Shown here piece after piece: positions 44,162 through 64,000 of a stretch of DNA of 64,000 nt; the stretch's first letter is position 1, and each line of letters begins with the position of its first letter. The notes beneath the pieces were generated by a model. The model searched no databases. It had not been told where the DNA came from and was given only the letters and a program-made list of their open reading frames with translations. The position numbers were made by a program, and so were the translations under genes. The DNA is from Deltaproteobacteria bacterium CG11_big_fil_rev_8_21_14_0_20_47_16 (GTDB taxonomy: Bacteria; UBA10199; GCA-002796325; 1-14-0-20-47-16), in NCBI GenBank assembly GCA_002796325.1, contig PCXA01000007.1, positions 145,780 through 209,779 on the forward strand, in the 5' to 3' direction.

Positions 44162-44764
44162 TCAACAGTTTGAAGAACCTGGATGTTTTGCCACGGGCAA
44201 GATGCCTTCTTGTACTAAAACATCACGCAGCCGCTGGTCGCCAGTTGCTAAAAAGCGCTCATAGCATTCTAAAAGATTAATATCAGTCAAGTTGCGGCCT
44301 GCCTTACCAACGTCGTTTACAACATCTACTAAATGACGAAACTTAATGCCCATCTCTTCAAAAACCTCCGAAAATCCACGCTGTCCCGGCATGGACGAGG
44401 CTAGGGTAAGGTAAGCACCACCGCCCATTCGGATATAATAGTCGAGTGTTTTAAAGCGACGAGTGGCACGTTCAGGAAAAATGCCAGCCACAAACAGGGC
44501 GTTATCTCCCAAAAACTTAAGGGTACGAACCCGTGTTGCGGTATCCCCATGGACGGCGCGTTCTAGCAGCAATGCCAGAGGTGTGTCTTCTGGTTGACCA
44601 CCAACACAATCAAATGCCTTGTCTGTTTTTTTGAGCTCAGAGAGTAGATTGACGATATAGAATTCGCTGTCTTCGGTGAGCGAGATCTTATGTTTTACAA
44701 TGGCCCTTCGGACGAGGTCCCTAAAGAATGACAACAGACTACTGTTTTCAACGACATCTGCCAT
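44162..44764 (-). CDS. Hypothetical cytoplasmic protein (200 aa)
   Basis: Codirectional ORF with no recognisable motif; heads the amgK-murU gene string. Confidence 0.45.
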   Translation of the reverse strand: MADVVENSSLLSFFRDLVRRAIVKHKISLTEDSEFYIVNLLSELKKTDKAFDCVGGQPEDTPLALLLERAVHGDTATRVRTLKFLGDNALFVAGIFPERATRRFKTLDYYIRMGGGAYLTLASSMPGQRGFSEVFEEMGIKFRHLVDVVNDVGKAGRNLTDINLLECYERFLATGDQRLRDVLVQEGILPVAKHPGSSNC

Positions 44765-44805: not shown

Positions 44806-46137
44806 CTAATTGGCAGGGGGGGTGGGAGGGGTCTTGGTCGCGGGCGCCGCCACTGTGGGAGGTGTTTCGAGGAGGTAGCGATAACTATCCGCCAAACTAT
44901 GATACAGATTACGGGTTCCCATCAAACGTGCCAAGAGATAGGCAATGAGTGCAGCTAACATGATGGGTAGGAGCATTTGGTGATGTCCTGTCATTTCAAA
45001 AATAATAACAAAAGCGGTCATGGGTGCTTGAATGGCACCCGATAGGAAAGCGGCCATACCAATCATGGCACAGGCGCTAATTGGTGCGTTTAGCCAATGA
45101 CCCATATTGGCGCCTAACGCTGCGCCCATGGATAAGGATGGTGCAAAGATGCCTCCCGCAATTCCTGACCAATAGGTAAACAAAGTGGCACCCATTTTAG
45201 TCCAGGGGAAAATGAAGACCCAATTGTCATAATCACCATTTACCAAACGTTGGGCGGCTTCGTTACCAGGGCCTAGCACGTTGGGGCCACTAATGGTGGC
45301 AAGACCCAGAAGCGCAAATGACAAAATGACAATCAATATGATTTGGGATCGACGGCTATAGAAGAGGCTCAGTACTCGGCGACCATTGAGGAGTGCAGCA
45401 GCAAATAGAATTCCGGCTAAACCAGAAAACACGCTAACGGCCAAGATCGCGTCCAAACGAATAGCGGGTGGGTCTGCGAGTTTACCAAAATAGGTGTAGT
45501 CGCCGGTAAATGTTTTGGCGGCAATGGCTGCAATAATGATAGACATGAGCACCACATCTTTAATGCTGCCAAAATATTCGGGCATGAGTTCTTCAATGGC
45601 AAATGTTACTCCAGCCAGTGGGGTATTAAACGCGGCGGCTAAACCAGCTGCGCCACCCGCTACCACTGCTGATTTCATGTCAAAGTTCAAACCTAAGAAA
45701 CGTCGGAACAAAAGTAAAATGCCTACAAAGACGCAGGCAGCCACATGGACGGTTGGGCCTTCACGGCCGGTTGATGCACCGGCCCAAATAGCAATGTAAA
45801 GAGCGAGTATTTTAACAACGAGTGTCTTAAATGATGTGAGCGGTGCAAGCTTATGCTGGTTATGCACTGTTGCATGTTCGGCCGCAAAAACGGCTTGTGG
45901 GATACCAGCGCCTGCTGCACAAGGTGCTAACCAGCGAATCATGGTAACGCTGATAATGAACAATATGGGGGTGGTAAGCCATGCCCAGTAGCCAATATGC
46001 CAAAAATCCAATCGTTCATAGATGACCGCATCAAACCCAAGCATGAATAAAACGCAGGCGACCCCGGTAATTGCAGCCGCAGTTAAATAGCCAAACAGGG
46101 TTAAGCCATAGCGATGTTTGAGGAACTCTTTAAACAT
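44806..46137 (-). CDS. ClC-family chloride channel / H+-Cl- antiporter
   Basis: GREGP and GIAGGIFAPSL selectivity motifs. Confidence 0.85.
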   Translation of the reverse strand: MFKEFLKHRYGLTLFGYLTAAAITGVACVLFMLGFDAVIYERLDFWHIGYWAWLTTPILFIISVTMIRWLAPCAAGAGIPQAVFAAEHATVHNQHKLAPLTSFKTLVVKILALYIAIWAGASTGREGPTVHVAACVFVGILLLFRRFLGLNFDMKSAVVAGGAAGLAAAFNTPLAGVTFAIEELMPEYFGSIKDVVLMSIIIAAIAAKTFTGDYTYFGKLADPPAIRLDAILAVSVFSGLAGILFAAALLNGRRVLSLFYSRRSQIILIVILSFALLGLATISGPNVLGPGNEAAQRLVNGDYDNWVFIFPWTKMGATLFTYWSGIAGGIFAPSLSMGAALGANMGHWLNAPISACAMIGMAAFLSGAIQAPMTAFVIIFEMTGHHQMLLPIMLAALIAYLLARLMGTRNLYHSLADSYRYLLETPPTVAAPATKTPPTPPAN

Positions 46138-56204: not shown

Positions 56205-57652
56205 CGTTACAACTCTATAATACATTAAAACGTAAAAAAGAAGAATTTAAGCCGATTACACCTGGGCAGGTGAAGATGTACGTCTGCGGTGTGACAGTGT
56301 GGGATTATTGCCACTTGGGTCATGCACGCGCAGCCGTAACGTTTGATATGGTCGTTCGGTATCTGCGCTATTTGGGAAATAAAGTCACCTATGTGCGGAA
56401 CTTCACCGATGTGGATGATAAAATTATTAATCGTGCCAACAAAGAAAAGCGTGATTGGAAGGAGTTGGCGCAATTTTATATCGATGATTACGAAAAATCC
56501 ATGTCGCTGCTGGGTTGCGAATCGCCCAGTGATGAACCCAAGGCCAGTGAGTACATTCAGAACATGCAGGACATGATTGCGCAGTTGATCGACAACGGCC
56601 ATGCCTATGCCGCCAGTGGTGATGTATTCTATGCGGTGCGGTCATTTAATGGGTACGGCAAACTGTCGGGCAAAAAAATTGATGATTTGGAAAGTGGTGC
56701 GCGTGTTGAAGTGGGGGAAACGAAGCGTGACCCGCTGGACTTTGCACTGTGGAAGGCAGCCAAGCCAGGGGAACCTGCCTGGAAAAGCCCGTGGGGCGAG
56801 GGTCGGCCAGGATGGCATATTGAATGCTCATGCATGGCGAAGGCATTGTTGGGAGACACGTTTGATATTCATGGTGGTGGTCGCGATTTGATTTTCCCCC
56901 ATCATGAAAATGAAATTGCGCAATCCGAAGGGGCGAACGGTTGTGAGTTTGCACGTTATTGGATGCACAATGGAACGCTCGATATTGATTCTGAAAAAAT
57001 GAGCAAGTCGCTGGGCAATTATTTTACCGTACATGATGTGCTCAAAAATTATGATCCTGAAGTCGTGCGTTATTTCTTGCTCTCGGCCAATTATCGTTCG
57101 CCTTTGAATTACACGACGCAGGCGCTGGATGATGCGAAGAAGGCGCTCGATAAAATTTATGAGACGTCCGCACGTGTTAAATCAAATAGTGCGGGTCCTG
57201 CCGCCGATGGGAATCCCACTTTCGCTGCGGCTCAAGCGGGATCCCTCCCCTCGGCGTCACCCGCGCACATGTGGTTTCAGAAATTTACCGATGCCCTCAA
57301 TGATGATTTCAACACCCCCAAGGCCTATGCAGTAATCTTCGATGCTGTACGCGATGTGAATCGTGGGGATGCAGATGCGGTTGCGGCATGGCCACGGTTT
57401 ATTGAAGTGGTGTCAGAAACATTGGGGTTTGCAGGAAGCAATGCAGATGCCTATATAGAGCGCCAGACCCAGCTTGCCACGCAAAAATCGGGCGTGGATC
57501 CCGCTCAAATTGAGCAACTCCTGGCCGATCGCAAGGCCGCACGCGCTGCAAAGGACTTCAAAAAATCCGATGAAATTCGGGATCAGTTGACTGCTATGGG
57601 GGTCACCATCAAAGACCGTCCCGATGGCACGACCGAGTGGAAACTTAGTTAG
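56201..57652 (+). CDS. cysS: Cysteine--tRNA ligase
   Basis: HLGHAR (HIGH-type) and KMSKSLGN motifs; ATGA overlap with ispF. Confidence 0.9.
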   Translation: MTLQLYNTLKRKKEEFKPITPGQVKMYVCGVTVWDYCHLGHARAAVTFDMVVRYLRYLGNKVTYVRNFTDVDDKIINRANKEKRDWKELAQFYIDDYEKSMSLLGCESPSDEPKASEYIQNMQDMIAQLIDNGHAYAASGDVFYAVRSFNGYGKLSGKKIDDLESGARVEVGETKRDPLDFALWKAAKPGEPAWKSPWGEGRPGWHIECSCMAKALLGDTFDIHGGGRDLIFPHHENEIAQSEGANGCEFARYWMHNGTLDIDSEKMSKSLGNYFTVHDVLKNYDPEVVRYFLLSANYRSPLNYTTQALDDAKKALDKIYETSARVKSNSAGPAADGNPTFAAAQAGSLPSASPAHMWFQKFTDALNDDFNTPKAYAVIFDAVRDVNRGDADAVAAWPRFIEVVSETLGFAGSNADAYIERQTQLATQKSGVDPAQIEQLLADRKAARAAKDFKKSDEIRDQLTAMGVTIKDRPDGTTEWKLS

Positions 57653-58290
57653 GATTTAAGCTGTTGAATGGCCTTCGCATAATCCCCAGACTTAAACACC
57701 GCATTCCCTGCAACAAGGATTGATGCGCCAGCATCCAGGAAAAGTTTGAGTGTGTCGGGTGTGACGCCGCCGTCGGCTTGGATTGGAATCGCGTGATTCA
57801 ATTCTTTGAGTTTGTCCCGCACGATCTTCATTTTTTCCAAACAATCGGGGATCATTTTTTGTCCTGCGTAACCCGTTTGTACGGTCATGACCAAAACATA
57901 ATCAGCGAGTGGTAAGTAAGGGAGTAGTTCTTCAACCGGCGTCTTGGCGTCCACAACAATGCCGGCCTTGCAGCCCAGTTTTTGAATGGCTGGCAGTGTG
58001 ACTTTGGGATCGCAGGTTTCCACATGCACCGAAATCATCTGGCAGCCCGCCTTGGCGACGTCTTCAATAATAGCATCGGGATTGGTGACCATTAAGTGCG
58101 CATCAAACGGGAGTTGGGTGGCATTGCGAAGACCCGCAATGACTGGTGGGCCAAAGGTCAAGTTGGGATTGTAATGCCCGTCCATGATATCCCAATGAAT
58201 GATATCGGCGCCGGCGGCTTCAATGGCACGGATTTCATCGCCGAGTTTGGCAAAGTCAGCAGCTAAAATGGATGGCGCGATTTGAATCAT
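57649..58290 (-). CDS. rpe: Ribulose-phosphate 3-epimerase
   Basis: IAPSILAADFAKLG and HWDIMDGHY motifs. Confidence 0.9.
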   Translation of the reverse strand: MIQIAPSILAADFAKLGDEIRAIEAAGADIIHWDIMDGHYNPNLTFGPPVIAGLRNATQLPFDAHLMVTNPDAIIEDVAKAGCQMISVHVETCDPKVTLPAIQKLGCKAGIVVDAKTPVEELLPYLPLADYVLVMTVQTGYAGQKMIPDCLEKMKIVRDKLKELNHAIPIQADGGVTPDTLKLFLDAGASILVAGNAVFKSGDYAKAIQQLKS

Positions 58291-59213
58291 AGAAATTTAT
58301 CTCCTGCTTTGAGTGGATGTCCGTTTAAAAAATCTGCAGCGGTCATGGCACGGCTGCCTTCCATTTGCAATTGTGTGATGGCCAAACGCCCTTGCCCAGT
58401 CGCGACAACAATTTTGTCGTCCGCTTTTAGAATAGTACCCGGCGTTTCAGATGAGGCGAGTGGAATATCATGCGCCATATGAATCTTCACCAGTTTCCCA
58501 TTCCATTGCGTATGCGCCATGGGCCACGGGTTTAAACCGCGAACGAGGCGTGCAATGACGTCTGCGGGCAGCTCCCATTTGATGGCGCCGTGTTCCTTGC
58601 TCAGCTTTTCAGCATACGTGGATTTGCTGTCGTCTTGTTTTTGCGGCGTAATCTTGCCGGATTCCAACCCCGCCAGTGTTTCCACCATGACGCGTGCACC
58701 AATTTTGGCGAGTTTGTCGTGCATGTCACCGGCGGTATCCGTATCCGAAATGTTTACGGGGTACTGCATGAGCACGTCGCCTGCGTCGAGCGCTTCAACC
58801 AAATACATCGTGCTGACACCTGTTTTGCTATCCCCTTGAATGATCGGCCAGTTGATGGGGGCGGCGCCTCGATACAACGGTAGAAGTGATGGATGGAGAT
58901 TTACGCATTTGTACTTTGCAGCAGTCAGTAGTTCATTGGGAATAATTTGTCCGTAGGCCACGACCACAAAAATATCTGCGTTATGTGCAAGACAGTGGGC
59001 AATGGCTGCAGGATCACGCAGCTTTTCGGACTGAAAGAGGGAAATGCCTTTGGTGCGCGCATGCTCACCCAATGGTGGTGTGGCAAGCTTTTGGCCGCGC
59101 CCCGCAGGGCGATCGGGTTGGCAGACGACTTCGCAGATGTCGTGGCCTGCATCCATGAGTGCATCGAGTGTGGGGATGGCAAATTCAGCAGAGCCAAAAA
59201 ATAGAATTTTCAT
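58287..59213 (-). CDS. fmt: Methionyl-tRNA formyltransferase
   Basis: N-terminal formyltransferase fold with PSLLPLYRGAAPINW. Confidence 0.9.
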   Translation of the reverse strand: MKILFFGSAEFAIPTLDALMDAGHDICEVVCQPDRPAGRGQKLATPPLGEHARTKGISLFQSEKLRDPAAIAHCLAHNADIFVVVAYGQIIPNELLTAAKYKCVNLHPSLLPLYRGAAPINWPIIQGDSKTGVSTMYLVEALDAGDVLMQYPVNISDTDTAGDMHDKLAKIGARVMVETLAGLESGKITPQKQDDSKSTYAEKLSKEHGAIKWELPADVIARLVRGLNPWPMAHTQWNGKLVKIHMAHDIPLASSETPGTILKADDKIVVATGQGRLAITQLQMEGSRAMTAADFLNGHPLKAGDKFL

Positions 59214-59214
59214 G

Positions 59215-59751
59215 TCAACCCATCATGGTGGTGGGGTCACCACCGTCTTTGAGGATTTTTTTCAAACGGCGCAGGTAAAGATCACGCTTTAAGCGGCTTA
59301 CGTTGTCGATCAGCAGTTTGCCATGCAGGTGATCAATTTCATGTTGTAGGATTACTGCCAAAAATTCATCGGCATCAATGGTAATGTCTTTGCCGTCGCG
59401 ATCAATGGCCTCAACGATTACGTGCGAATTGCGTGTCATGGGCAGCAAAAATCCGGGAATGCTTAAACATCCTTCTTCCCACTCAATTTCACCTTCAGCA
59501 AATGTGATCTTGGGATTTACCAGCTGATAGAGCTGGGGTTTTGCATTTTCGCGATTGCTACTGGGATCCAATACAATGAGTTGCTGGCTCACGCCCACTT
59601 GCGGTGCGGCCAAACCCACGCCTGGCGCGGCATACATGGTCTCTGCCATGTCATCGAGCAGTTTGCGGATATCGTCTGTAATCTTGGCAACAGGTTTTGC
59701 CACCTGCTTTAAGACGGGTTCTGGAAATAATGTAATGGGAAGTACGGCCAT
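59215..59751 (-). CDS. def: Peptide deformylase
   Basis: GVGLAAPQVG, EGCLSIPG and HEIDHLHG motifs. Confidence 0.92.
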   Translation of the reverse strand: MAVLPITLFPEPVLKQVAKPVAKITDDIRKLLDDMAETMYAAPGVGLAAPQVGVSQQLIVLDPSSNRENAKPQLYQLVNPKITFAEGEIEWEEGCLSIPGFLLPMTRNSHVIVEAIDRDGKDITIDADEFLAVILQHEIDHLHGKLLIDNVSRLKRDLYLRRLKKILKDGGDPTTMMG

Positions 59752-59782: not shown

Positions 59783-61801
59783 TCAAACAAAGTTCAACGG
59801 ATCAACATCAACGGTGACTTGCACGCCCGATGGGGCTTCAGCTGCGCTATGTTTTAAAATACAATCGGCAATGCCTGGAATTTGAGTGGCCGAATTGAGC
59901 TTAAGAAGCAGTTGCATGCGCGTTTTTCCGCGAAGTCGATAGAGGAGTGCGGGTGCTGGGCCCAAGACGATGCAGTCTGGCGCATGTCGCTCTAAAGTGG
60001 TTTGTAAATATTTCCCCAACACATCTGCGTAGTCAGTTCCCTTTTTTTCAACATTGCTGGCAATGGTGCAGGTGATGAGGCGACCGTATGGCGGATAACG
60101 CAGTTCCTCGCGGTTGTGTAATTCGGCGTCGGCAAATCCAGTATAGTCATGCTTGATCACATGCTGCAGGCAATAGTGCTCGGGTTGCATGGTTTGAATG
60201 AGTACATCACCTGGTAAATGTGCGCGGCCTGCGCGTCCGCTGGCTTGAGTCAGCAGCTGAAAGCTGCGTTCGGGTGCGCGAAAGTCAGGCATGTTCAAAC
60301 TCATCTCTGCCGAAATCACACCAACAAATGTAACGTGCGAAAAGTCATGGCCCTTGGCAATCATTTGGGTGCCGACCAAAATATCGATGTCTTGATTGTG
60401 CATGGATTGCAAAAGTTCGGTGCGTTGGGTTTGTGTGGAAACGGTGTCGCTGTCGAGGCGTGAAATGCGCGCTGTAGGAAAGTGGCCTTTTAAAATATCT
60501 TCAATGCGTTCTGCCCCAGCGCCAATGGGTTTCAAATCGATTCCCTTGCAAAGTTCGCAGCTATCCGGCGCATCCGTACAATAGTCACAATAGTGGCAGC
60601 GCAATTCATGTTTGCTGTGGTGATATGTCAGACTTAAATCGCAATTGGGGCAGGTATCGACGTGTCCACAAGATTCACACACCACAAATTGCGAAAACCC
60701 ACGGCGGTTGATGAGCAGTAAACTTTGTTCTCCGACATCCAATCGTTTTTGAAGTGCAGCCAATAGTTGTGGTGAAAAAAGTGGGAGCGGCTTTCCTTCT
60801 TCTTTGAGTGCGCGCATGTCCACCAATTGCACGTTGGGCATGACTTGGCCGGTGGCGCGTTCTGTGAGTGTGATGAGTTGGTATTTTCCCTGACGCGCAT
60901 TAAAAATGGATTCGAGCGATGGTGTCGCAGATCCTAAAACGACCGGAATCTTTTCCATCTTGGCGCGCATGACAGCCACATCGCGGCCGTTGTAGCGGGG
61001 TGAGCTGTCTTGTTTGTAAGAGGAATCGTGTTCTTCATCGACGATGATAAGGCCACACTTAGGTGTCGGAGCAAAAATTGCTGAACGTGTGCCGACGACA
61101 ATTTTGGCTTCGCCAAGTGCAATGCGTTGCCACTGGTGCGCGCGTTGTAATTCGGTGAGCGCGCTGTGATAGACTGCAACGGCATCGCCAAAGCGCTCGG
61201 TGAATCGCCCCAAGAGTTGTGGGGTCAGTGCAATTTCGGGCACCAATACGATGGCTTGTTCATTGCGTGCCATGGCTTCTGCGCAAGCGGCCATGTAGAC
61301 TTCTGTCTTACCGCTTCCGGTGACACCCTGAATCAAAATGGGTGCGAACTGCCCAAACTTCGCTGTGATTTGAGAAACGGCATCTTGCTGCGGCGTAAGA
61401 AGTATGGGGGCGTTAATGCCCTCGCGTGCCACGTGCGCGGTGTGCGCTTCGGCAAGTCGGCCTTTGCGCGTTGATTTTTTGGCAGCCTTCCAAAAGTGGG
61501 GTGGCAATGCGGATTGAATCACTTCCCCAATAGGTGCGGCGTAATAATCTGAAATCCATTTGCAAAGAGCAAGCGTGGCGGGCGACATGACCTGTTGTGT
61601 GTCGAGTAACTCATCAATGGGTCGGATCTTGGCATGCGCTGGTGCCGATGTATTAAGCGCCGTTACCATCGCGATGGCCGATTTTCGGCGCATGGTGATA
61701 CGGACGCGCATGCCGGGTTTGAGTGTGGCAACAAATTCTTCCGGTGCATCGTATGTAAATGTGGTGTTCAGTGGAACGGGAATGGCGACATCAATCAACA
61801 T
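59783..61801 (-). CDS. priA: Primosomal protein N' (replication restart helicase)
   Basis: Walker A GVTGSGKT, DEEH box, Cys-rich zinc-binding insert; ORF-track start is a 5' extension. Confidence 0.85.
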   Translation of the reverse strand: MLIDVAIPVPLNTTFTYDAPEEFVATLKPGMRVRITMRRKSAIAMVTALNTSAPAHAKIRPIDELLDTQQVMSPATLALCKWISDYYAAPIGEVIQSALPPHFWKAAKKSTRKGRLAEAHTAHVAREGINAPILLTPQQDAVSQITAKFGQFAPILIQGVTGSGKTEVYMAACAEAMARNEQAIVLVPEIALTPQLLGRFTERFGDAVAVYHSALTELQRAHQWQRIALGEAKIVVGTRSAIFAPTPKCGLIIVDEEHDSSYKQDSSPRYNGRDVAVMRAKMEKIPVVLGSATPSLESIFNARQGKYQLITLTERATGQVMPNVQLVDMRALKEEGKPLPLFSPQLLAALQKRLDVGEQSLLLINRRGFSQFVVCESCGHVDTCPNCDLSLTYHHSKHELRCHYCDYCTDAPDSCELCKGIDLKPIGAGAERIEDILKGHFPTARISRLDSDTVSTQTQRTELLQSMHNQDIDILVGTQMIAKGHDFSHVTFVGVISAEMSLNMPDFRAPERSFQLLTQASGRAGRAHLPGDVLIQTMQPEHYCLQHVIKHDYTGFADAELHNREELRYPPYGRLITCTIASNVEKKGTDYADVLGKYLQTTLERHAPDCIVLGPAPALLYRLRGKTRMQLLLKLNSATQIPGIADCILKHSAAEAPSGVQVTVDVDPLNFV

Positions 61802-62576
61802 GGTAATTATATCCAATATCGGTGGTAACACCGGTGGGAAGCTGGTCCGGTGCCATTTCGATCGCAAAGCGCAGCACTTGTCCACGCTTAACTTTAAAGG
61901 GTTTTCGAATCGGTAAAAACCCCTGCTTCCAATGGGTTGGCGCCGCATTAGGCGATGTCGAAAACGAAATGCCTTTGGCAAGTGTTAAGTCAAACCAGCC
62001 CGCGAATCCGGACACGGTTGCATCGCGGGTGATCGTAAACTGGGTTTCAATTGTAAAAATGGGATTTGTTTCAGTTAAAAAATGAATTGATGTTGCGATG
62101 GGGGCTGCTAAAAGTTGCGCTTCTGGAATGTGCTGCACCTTTGCGCGTGATTTTGTAGCCGCGGGTGCTAAGAGTAAGTCGACGTGATCGGGAATGATGG
62201 CGCCCCCTTTTTTCAAGAAGCGTTTTCGCGCATCAATGAGTGTGGGGAGCGTATTTTCATCGAGTGCTAAACTCCCCAACGTTTCACTGACAATCACATC
62301 TACTTTTTCAGGTAATTTGATTTCGCCGGACAAGCCTTGCACCCAGGTGATGCGATCATCTTTTTCAGCAAGCTGGATTGTCTCTTCATCAAATTCAATG
62401 GCGTACACTTTGCTGGCACCGGCATCTAATGCCATGTGTGATAGCACGCCCAAGCCTGCACCGATATCCGCCACCACCATACCCGGCTTAACGACTGCCT
62501 GAATGGCTTTTCGGTAAGCATCCATACGGATGCTGTCTTTTAATAAAATGGCATGGGTAGATAATAGTTCCGACAT
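61791..62576 (-). CDS. PRMT-like class I SAM-dependent methyltransferase (protein arginine methyltransferase fold)
   Basis: Motif I VADIGAGLGVLS, post-I VYAIE, VDVIVSETLG, and THWKQ loop; AAGGGG RBS; 3' end overlaps priA start. Confidence 0.6.
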   Translation of the reverse strand: MSELLSTHAILLKDSIRMDAYRKAIQAVVKPGMVVADIGAGLGVLSHMALDAGASKVYAIEFDEETIQLAEKDDRITWVQGLSGEIKLPEKVDVIVSETLGSLALDENTLPTLIDARKRFLKKGGAIIPDHVDLLLAPAATKSRAKVQHIPEAQLLAAPIATSIHFLTETNPIFTIETQFTITRDATVSGFAGWFDLTLAKGISFSTSPNAAPTHWKQGFLPIRKPFKVKRGQVLRFAIEMAPDQLPTGVTTDIGYNYHVD

Positions 62577-62790
62577 AGGAGCCCCTTATCAAAATGAGGA
62601 CTAAGTCCCAATAGAAAAGCCGTTGGTAGGCATGCTTCCTGCAACAGATAATCTCCGCCGTTTATTTATTTTGAGTACTGAGGGGGAAATGGCGTCTAAC
62701 ATGTTAAAATATAACAAAAATGATATTGGGGAGGGGGGTAAAACGCACCAATGTGCGAGGTGTCAATTTACCCCAATCAGGGCCTCTATA

Positions 62791-64000
62791 ATGCAGCGCA
62801 TTTTTGTTGTGTTGGGCGTAATCCTTCTAGGGGCAGGTTTAGCATGGGCCGCAGAAACCCTCAATTGGACATTCAGCATTGATAATCCCATTCAATTTGA
62901 CAGTTCTGAAATTGCACTTTCCAACGACATGGTTGTGTTGAAGGCCCAAAATCAAACCGCTAATAATAAAAATACATTTGATAGCGGCAAGTTTATTAAT
63001 AGCCTTTGGGATGACGTGAATCAGTATTTAGTGGTTCAGTCTGTCATCACATTGCCCAATAATGGTGGATCAACTGATTGGGCCAACATGGCGCAGAATC
63101 AAGTGCTGATTCATGCAGATGCATCCCCCGTATTTGATGGGTTCAATGAAGCGTTTCCCAATAGTTCCGGTCAGGAGATTCAAGCTACTTGTACAATGCC
63201 AAGTTGTCCTCAAGTTGACGCGACTGGTAAGATTGCAACATCGCTCTTTTTCGATGGTGTGAATGACTATCTTGCACTTTCTGGGACCTGGGGTGGTGCA
63301 GATTGGAATGAAGCTACAATTGAAGCATGGGTGCGTGTTGATGCGGTAACATCGGATATGCAAGCTATCGTATCTACGACTGCCGCGGACATGTTCGTTC
63401 ACTTCCAAATGCTCAAAACCGGAGATAAGTTTAACGTAGCTGTTTACGCAGATAATGGCAGCAAAGTGATCGACTTCGATCCATCCGCAAGTACACTCAC
63501 TGTTGGTGAATGGCATCATGTGGCAGCCAGTGTCAAGTCTGGGGATATTGCACTTTATGCGGATGGTATCAAAGTGGGTGGCAGTAATTTCACGTTTGGG
63601 TCATTGAAGCCTATCATTAATGGTAATGAATTTCGTGTGGGTAGTGGCTATGGTAAGGCACGTTTCTTTAGAGGAAAAATGGATGAGGTAGCGGTTTACA
63701 AGCGAGCTCTTACATCTGATGAAATTAAATCACACTTCGATAAGCAATCCGCAGGACTTGCCAGTTCGTACGAGTCCCGACTCTTTGTAGCTGGATCACC
63801 AGTGGTATGGAATGAGTTGTCATGGATGCCTGCCGGTCCAAATGGTGTGCAACTTCCAGATGATGCCCAAAAGGAATCATCTTACTATGCTGGTAATGCC
63901 GACATGACTGGCAACGTGATGTTGCTGCATTTCAATGATGAAGAAGGCACAAGTATGGTGGATTCATCAGGTCTAAAGAATAATGCAGTCTGTAGTGGCG
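62791..64000 (+). CDS. Secreted LamG / concanavalin-A-like lectin-domain protein, 3' end outside window
   Basis: Signal peptide MQRIFVVLGVILLGAGLAWA; FDGVNDYLAL...WHHVAA...FRGKMDEVAVYKRALTSDEI; frame open to window end by manual translation. Confidence 0.6.
   Translation, partial: MQRIFVVLGVILLGAGLAWAAETLNWTFSIDNPIQFDSSEIALSNDMVVLKAQNQTANNKNTFDSGKFINSLWDDVNQYLVVQSVITLPNNGGSTDWANMAQNQVLIHADASPVFDGFNEAFPNSSGQEIQATCTMPSCPQVDATGKIATSLFFDGVNDYLALSGTWGGADWNEATIEAWVRVDAVTSDMQAIVSTTAADMFVHFQMLKTGDKFNVAVYADNGSKVIDFDPSASTLTVGEWHHVAASVKSGDIALYADGIKVGGSNFTFGSLKPIINGNEFRVGSGYGKARFFRGKMDEVAVYKRALTSDEIKSHFDKQSAGLASSYESRLFVAGSPVVWNELSWMPAGPNGVQLPDDAQKESSYYAGNADMTGNVMLLHFNDEEGTSMVDSSGLKNNAVCSG

Follow-up and report, generated by a model that had tools for sequence, protein, structure and literature searches.

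What is a protein arginine N-methyltransferase (PRMT), an enzyme commonly treated as a eukaryotic signature, doing directly in front of the bacterial gene priA? This question is raised by one gene in a stretch of 64,000 nucleotides (nt) from the groundwater organism Deltaproteobacteria bacterium CG11_big_fil_rev_8_21_14_0_20_47_16 (contig PCXA01000007.1, positions 145,780 to 209,779 of the forward strand), which was analysed whole and which we call the window. The original prediction, made from the sequence alone, held that this gene encodes a bacterial PRMT-like methyltransferase and heads a priA-def-fmt-rpe string. Here, we find that the enzyme class is well supported, that the protein lacks both the dimerization arm and the helix X of PRMTs, and that its linkage to priA is confined to one lineage. 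Our reading, to which we give a probability of about 0.7, is that it is an active arginine N-methyltransferase working in a non-canonical oligomeric state and co-expressed with PriA; of these elements, the oligomeric state and the coupling to priA are those that we infer.

Results

A PRMT in a bacterial genome

The single protein sequence, searched against the PDB with phmmer, matches PRMT3 best (E = 7.1e-30, 108 bits), followed by PRMT6, PRMT8, CARM1, PRMT1, PRMT2, PRMT9, PRMT5 and PRMT7; only PRMTs are among the matches listed. In Pfam, its C-terminal half corresponds to PRMT_C (9.5e-14) and PRMT5_C (6e-09), both above their gathering thresholds. A profile of 29 prokaryotic relatives covers the PRMT3 core from end to end (E = 4.8e-60). 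The AlphaFold2 model computed on the 29-sequence alignment has a mean predicted local distance difference test (pLDDT) of 94.3 and a predicted template-modelling score (pTM) of 0.90, with the Rossmann fold above a pLDDT of 90. When this model was searched with Foldseek, the best 50 matches were PRMT6, PRMT3 or CARM1 only, with template-modelling (TM) scores of 0.78-0.86 relative to the query. The PRMT-specific C-terminal beta-barrel is present and joined to the Rossmann domain via a conserved proline. Sequence, profile and predicted structure together show a class I Rossmann domain binding S-adenosylmethionine (SAM) plus the PRMT-specific beta-barrel, with the full catalytic set. The PDB search, PRMT_C, the family profile and Foldseek all point to PRMT, as originally proposed.

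Could the protein instead be an ordinary bacterial methyltransferase, i.e. PrmA (the ribosomal protein L11 lysine methyltransferase) or an rRNA methyltransferase of the RsmC/MTS type? Pfam does report PrmA on the Rossmann domain (3.2e-08), and the Prokaryotic Genome Annotation Pipeline (PGAP) labels the relatives P0023, P0037, P0043 and P0103 '50S ribosomal protein L11 methyltransferase'. Yet, the Pfam match is confined to residues 23-128, the NCBIfam prmA model requires 183 bits and gets 25, and the MTS domain (PF05175), with 18.4 bits, stays below its cut-off of 23. All NCBIfam models fall well short of their cut-offs, and no RsmC model is among the matches listed. The beta-barrel of the C-terminal half also counts against either identity. 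PrmA shares the class I Rossmann SAM-binding fold, but the structural match extends over 134 Rossmann residues only, and the N-terminal domain with which PrmA binds its substrate L11 is absent. PrmA methylates lysine and the N-terminus and, to our knowledge, carries neither the double-E nor the THW loop. We rejected PrmA or RsmC identity because the PrmA match is restricted to the Rossmann domain and the NCBIfam prmA and MTS scores are below threshold; it is very improbable.

A defence or phage methyltransferase was likewise rejected, since the matches in PADLOC and PHROGs are limited to the Rossmann domain. The sole PADLOC match, mad2 (5.1e-16), spans residues 28-129 on a model of 492 positions, and the neighbouring genes are housekeeping ones.

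Catalytic residues

In what follows, invariant refers to the alignment of 29 prokaryotic sequences (A1), which has a mean column identity of 41%. The SAM-binding motifs and the THWKQ loop that had drawn attention to the protein are present, far beyond chance (Table 1). The prediction had named the double-E loop as a point to verify. This loop, SETLGSLALDEN, holds E98 and E107, which HMMER alignments place on the double-E glutamates of PRMT3 and PRMT6, just as they place THWKQ on THWKQ; the THWKQ match is thus not isolated. Both glutamates are invariant in A1 and in a second alignment, A2. The loop reads D-E-N-T where eukaryotic PRMTs have (F/Y)-E-S-M; its Asn does not vary within the bacterial family. 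By correspondence to PRMT1, we take D14 to be the Asp that pairs with the histidine of the THW loop and R17 to be the Arg that binds the SAM carboxylate. From its position in the sequence, E61 is expected to be the acidic residue binding the ribose hydroxyls. In PRMTs, salt bridges connect the double-E glutamates to the guanidinium of the substrate, and the arginine pocket is completed by the THW loop (review, PMC8623767).

Relative to four orthologues, the ratio of nonsynonymous to synonymous substitution rates (dN/dS) is 0.11-0.23 for the methyltransferase and 0.07-0.20 for PriA; these values are rough since dS is saturated. By this measure, the methyltransferase gene is under purifying selection.

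Absence of the dimerization arm and of helix X

The protein falls short of a full PRMT core, as it has neither the dimerization arm nor the YFxxY helix X. It begins MSELLSTHAILLKD, with no aromatic motif, and the following helix H..LL.D..R is present. Many of the more distant bacterial relatives carry a Y/F-x-x-F/Y-Y motif where helix X would be. At the arm site, the alignment of the protein with PRMT3 falls into two blocks, residues 7-137 and 171-242, and skips about 30 PRMT3 residues; the bacterial family profile runs through the PRMT3 arm, with 'kflkkiagidfsp' on 'AFWDDVYGFNMSC'. Eukaryotic PRMTs, the wider bacterial family and P0022 all have these roughly 30 residues, and the clade of the window protein shows a clean alignment gap in their place. 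P0022, which is 52% identical and also overlaps priA, retains the arm segment, modelled (pLDDT 94.2) as an additional helix (147-157) and a coil, neither of which the window model has. Several other prokaryotic relatives, of 264-289 residues, have reduced arms; the window clade, without any arm, is the extreme case. By parsimony from the gene contexts, the loss of the arm most probably took place within the priA-linked lineage and followed the joining of the gene to priA.

The window protein and most of its armless clade have a second, smaller deletion, of ~6-7 residues, near residues 70-74 (~62355-62369) when compared with P0022 and P0023. This deletion (LAEK------DDRI) shortens the post-I helix, which the window model places at residues 64-69 and the P0022 model at 63-76.

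Relative to the cores of eukaryotic type I PRMTs (PRMT6, PRMT3, PRMT2, CARM1, PRMT1/8), the window protein is without arm, helix X and accessory N-terminal domains, and has 261 residues against roughly 310-320. Arm-mediated homodimerization is reported to be conserved among type I PRMTs and essential to their activity, and the SAM pocket to be closed by helix X (PMC8623767). Since the arm is precisely deleted here and the YFxxY helix X is absent, no canonical PRMT ring dimer is possible. Hence, an active enzyme would have to adopt a non-canonical quaternary state or rely on a partner. PRMT7 and PRMT9, which are pseudo-dimeric tandems, and the Trypanosoma brucei enzyme-prozyme pair bring two modules into a dimer-like arrangement via arm-type contacts, whereas the window protein is a single armless module.

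The same absences would fit a catalytically dead or regulatory PRMT fold, i.e. a 'prozyme'-like subunit or a SAM sensor, bound to PriA or to some other protein. Both missing elements are reported as necessary for type I activity (PMC8623767), and inactive PRMT paralogues do act as partners, as in the T. brucei PRMT1 enzyme-prozyme complex (6dnz), which is among our structural matches. But no catalytic or SAM-binding residue varies, either within the armless clade or in the family as a whole, and the dN/dS values indicate constraint on the whole protein, which counts against a pseudoenzyme. Prozymes typically lose catalytic or SAM-binding residues. We regard a dead enzyme as improbable and an active one as the better account of this conservation.

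A broad and patchy prokaryotic family

About 20 metagenomic proteins of similar length are 59-73% identical to the window protein. A larger set, at 35-44% identity, consists mostly of proteins of 290-335 residues, many of which have a C-terminal SEC-C zinc motif. An exhaustive search of 1.84 billion cluster representatives gave 301 clusters (at 50% identity) with E<=1e-30 and 4811 with E<=1e-10, the latter count taking in generic methyltransferases and eukaryotic PRMTs as well. All of the armless, priA-linked clade falls into one single 50% cluster. Scanning GTDB species representatives, by exact peptide patterns that are sensitive to closer relatives, yielded 22 loci, while the genome of the window and its close kin were not recovered. 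These loci belong to Deltaproteobacteria, Oligoflexia, Myxococcota, Planctomycetes, Poribacteria, KSB1, Cyanobacteriota, Terriglobia, lineages of the Candidate Phyla Radiation (CPR) and two archaea. The prokaryotic PRMT-like fold is thus patchy yet phylogenetically broad. The prediction had called it uncommon in bacteria; patchy it is, but with 301 clusters at the stricter threshold it is not rare in metagenomes.

This family was already noted in comparative genomics by Aravind and colleagues, as a radiation, in bacteria, of enzymes that methylate peptides (PMC3417536). Our literature search found no paper on a biochemically characterised bacterial PRMT, only that comparative-genomics statement. 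The window protein is nested in the family, at 35-73% identity and with the same invariant residues. Most members have ~290-335 residues and an arm-homologous FWxxIxGIDFSP, whereas the window clade has no arm; many have the N-terminal Y/F-x-x-F/Y-Y or the SEC-C end, and the window protein has neither.

The SEC-C motif (CPCGSGKKYKKCC, PF02810) ends many PRMT-like proteins of 320-340 residues (A1 columns ~370-415), among them P0033, P0037, P0042, P0046, P0054, P0092, P0100, P0103 and P0105. It is through SEC-C that SecA is linked to SecB and the ribosome. Annotation in the family is uneven. PGAP uses 'L11 methyltransferase' for several clear PRMT-family proteins and 'hypothetical' for the window protein, and the Joint Genome Institute (JGI) uses 'protein arginine N-methyltransferase 1' for some relatives. 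The window protein is identical to NCBI PIR20867.1, 'hypothetical protein COV45_04755', from a deltaproteobacterial metagenome-assembled genome (MAG) of the CG11_big_fil series.

As the best-characterised homologues are all eukaryotic, one might suspect that a eukaryotic PRMT gene was recently acquired by horizontal transfer, or that the MAG contains eukaryotic contamination. However, the gene shares 11 nt with a bacterial priA, is preceded by a Shine-Dalgarno-like site and has the local GC content (0.49-0.50, like the flanking genes), and four independent assemblies contain orthologues joined to priA in the same way. The nearest 120 relatives, at 162-570 bits, are metagenomic and bacterial wherever the source gives a name, and the best eukaryotic PRMT in the PDB scores 108 bits. 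Eukaryotic PRMTs are only ~26-32% identical. Because the protein sits inside a broad, patchy prokaryotic family, it is not a recent eukaryotic import. The gene junction, the GC content and the nesting among prokaryotic relatives led us to reject recent transfer and contamination alike, and we find either hardly credible.

Linkage to priA

The methyltransferase heads the priA-def-fmt-rpe string as predicted, the co-directional order running from 62576 to 57649 on the minus strand, and the predicted overlap of 11 nt with the start of priA holds once the priA start is fixed. The open reading frame (ORF) list, made mechanically, had priA starting at TTG 61981. We placed the start at ATG 61801 (MLIDVAIPVPL..., MLIDVAIPVPLNTTFTY) because the protein read from there matches, from residue 4 onward, the N-terminal end of PriA from Klebsiella and E. 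coli (E = 1.5e-138), and also aligns with positions 1-96 of Pfam PriA_3primeBD. The string priA-def-fmt is common in bacteria; what is new in the arrangement is confined to the methyltransferase that precedes it. The prediction had called this arrangement undescribed, and our literature search indeed turned up no paper on PRMT-priA linkage.

The junction can be read in three relatives, and in all of them the identical 11-nt overlap, ..TA(C/T)CATGTT(G/A)(A/C)TTGA.., is found: L001/L002 (protein 69% identical), L025 (72%) and L026 (52%). The sequence of a further one, L028 (61%), ends 50 nt past the gene. After priA, def-fmt-rpe continue in L025 and L026; in L001 a gene on the opposite strand follows and def-fmt are not there. 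Hence, priA is the only gene always downstream of the methyltransferase. These genomes are kin (PriA 64-66%, Fmt 75-81% and Rpe ~80% identical), and an upstream block encoding a LamG protein, DJ-1/PfpI, RlmH, PolX and endonuclease III (EndoIII) is also syntenic in the lineage. The conserved adjacency therefore carries limited functional weight.

Outside this lineage, no prokaryotic PRMT-like member that we examined lies beside priA. In the outgroup contigs at 44-49% identity (P0023, P0124, P0031, P0027) the methyltransferase does not adjoin priA, and searching the 22 GTDB loci with PriA, Def, Fmt and Rpe (tblastn) revealed no priA, def or fmt nearby. We thus rejected a general PRMT-priA linkage, which is absent from these loci and from the four contigs. 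The distribution and synteny that the prediction had left to be checked come out divided, the junction being kept within the lineage and absent from the loci examined outside it. A shared context among distant relatives was rejected as well; a polyketide synthase (PKS) cluster, two-component systems and ribosomal L21/L27/Obg genes are seen instead.

P0124 (47% identical), the nearest outgroup with a reduced arm, has a DciA-family gene two genes downstream on the opposite strand (L032 6879-7196). DciA is a replicative helicase loader; this second replication-related neighbour is probably a coincidence.

Gene contexts also bear on whether the enzyme modifies proteins at all. It might methylate the guanidino group of a peptide or small molecule, in natural-product tailoring or metabolite methylation. 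The bacterial PRMT-like enzymes nearest to the eukaryotic ones are found in peptide-antibiotic operons with nonribosomal peptide synthetases (NRPS), dioxygenases and amine oxidases (PMC3417536). The distant relative P0054 directly follows a cluster of PKS, AMP-ligase and phosphopantetheinyl-transferase genes, and a small substrate would go well with an armless enzyme of monomer size. Yet, no NRPS, PKS, tailoring genes or precursors of ribosomally synthesized and post-translationally modified peptides (RiPP) lie near the gene in the window, L001, L025, L026 or L028. The co-directional downstream neighbours are all housekeeping genes and the contexts of the other relatives are heterogeneous. We consider a small-molecule or peptide substrate unlikely, though less so than a dead enzyme, and favour the modification of proteins.

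In P0054 (L029 1-5892), which has a SEC-C tail, the upstream cluster encodes a 2322-residue ketosynthase-acyltransferase-dehydratase (KS-AT-DH) protein, KAS III, an AMP-ligase, a reductase and a phosphopantetheinyl transferase.

The gene and its neighbourhood

An in-frame TAA, read directly in the sequence four codons 5' of the methyltransferase ATG, rules out a longer N-terminus. The genes priA, def, fmt and rpe lie on one strand, separated by no more than 31 nt or overlapping by 4 nt, and their string converges on cysS-ispF-ispD-carD. Table 1 gives the features discussed.

Table 1. Features of the methyltransferase gene and its surroundings (window positions; aa, amino acid residues).
Feature	Position	Strand	Remarks
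PRMT-like methyltransferase gene	61791..62576	-	261 aa, ATG start
Shine-Dalgarno-like AAGGGG	62582..62587	-	5 nt upstream of methyltransferase ATG, read directly
N-terminal helix motif HAILLKDSIR (H..LL.D..R)	62526..62555	-	aa 8-17; D14, R17 invariant; no YFxxY before it
Motif I VADIGAGLG, SAM-binding glycine loop	62448..62474	-	aa 35-43; G39, G41, G43 invariant
Post-I motif VYAIEFD	62388..62408	-	aa 57-63; E61 conserved in at least 90% of sequences
Motif II and double-E loop VDVIVSETLGSLALDENTL	62247..62303	-	aa 92-110; E98, E107, N108 invariant
Motif III LKKGGAIIP	62190..62216	-	aa 121-129; invariant P129 at the PRMT inter-domain cis-proline position
Site of missing arm APAATKS/RAKVQH	62130..62168	-	aa 137-149; ~30 residues absent between aa 143 and 144
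THW loop PTHWKQG	61920..61940	-	aa 213-219; T214, H215, W216 invariant
Overlap of methyltransferase 3' end and priA start	61791..61801	-	11 nt, ..TACCATGTTGATTGA..
priA	59783..61801	-	672 aa; 3' DNA-binding domain (3'BD), helicase lobes, Cys-rich ribbon, C-terminal domain
def (peptide deformylase)	59215..59751	-	strong Pfam match
fmt (methionyl-tRNA formyltransferase)	58287..59213	-	strong Pfam match
rpe (ribulose-phosphate 3-epimerase)	57649..58290	-	strong Pfam match; overlaps fmt by 4 nt; last of string
Laminin_G_3 protein gene	62791-64000, running off window end	+	divergent from methyltransferase; Laminin_G_3 E = 1.2e-28

The divergent Laminin_G_3 (LamG) protein has a hydrophobic N-terminus that, by reading of the sequence, is a putative signal peptide. 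Its orthologues, of 1043-1364 residues, have two LamG domains with He_PIG and Big_9 repeats, and its gene stands beside the methyltransferase also in L001, L025 and L026.

The window PriA has only ~32 residues (~102-134) between the 3'BD and the helicase core, against ~96 in Klebsiella PriA (chain residues 118-214). We take this region to be the winged-helix domain, which from the sequence appears largely absent from the window protein. Orthologues of 673 residues are similarly short.

RG/RGG-rich candidate substrates were sought in the window, and the only match was a plus-strand reading frame at ~44772 with the RG-rich stretch GRGGGRGLGRGRRHCGR, beside or between the minus-strand ORFs 44162-44764 and 44806-46137. 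This frame is probably spurious and no real gene.

Discussion

The window protein is an uncharacterised armless variant of a known PRMT-like family, not a new kind of system, and there is as yet no evidence for a new mechanism or system. We favour an active arginine N-methyltransferase, which would follow the accepted PRMT mechanism. SAM would be held in the Rossmann domain, and the two glutamates would clamp a substrate arginine by its guanidinium and polarise this group, a terminal nitrogen of which would attack the SAM methyl. Having THW, rather than FSW or DHW, the enzyme would be predicted from sequence to give a type I or III product, i.e. mono- or asymmetric dimethyl-arginine. It might act as a monomer, as a dimer via another surface, or in dependence on a partner protein. 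With a stop codon 11 nt inside priA and a conserved junction, the two genes would be co-transcribed, and the enzyme is probably co-expressed with PriA via translational coupling. What it methylates we can only guess, with low confidence, to be a housekeeping nucleic-acid-binding protein. Since priA alone is always retained downstream, PriA and its primosome partners would be the first candidates, and ribosome- or translation-associated proteins the second.

Several observations weigh against this reading. An armless enzyme without helix X could, by analogy, be weak or inactive on its own. The adjacency to priA may stem from shared ancestry, not function; confined to one syntenic lineage, it is weak evidence for a functional link. 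None of the relatives examined at <=49% identity lies beside priA and they have no common context. A consensus scan for promoters and terminators gave no signal above shuffled expectation, and thus no convincing promoter. Gene order is the only ground for the substrate assignment. The fullest version of the reading, in which a monomeric armless, helix-X-less PRMT translationally coupled to PriA methylates arginines of PriA, the primosome or SSB and thereby tunes replication restart, is accordingly a long shot.

Compared with eukaryotic PRMTs, the gene is embedded in a bacterial gene string and overlaps priA, and the protein is about the smallest PRMT core that one could design with all catalytic residues kept. 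Automated annotation gives members of this family as 'hypothetical protein' or, wrongly, as 'L11 methyltransferase'. If active, the protein would be a convenient minimal model of PRMT catalysis, with which one could test whether dimerization is intrinsically required. The conserved overlap with priA provides a concrete first hypothesis on the substrate or partner of bacterial arginine methylation. Should methylation of PriA or the primosome prove true, it would be the first housekeeping role of a bacterial PRMT, and the enzyme would be a natural counter-example to the rule of arm-mediated dimerization.

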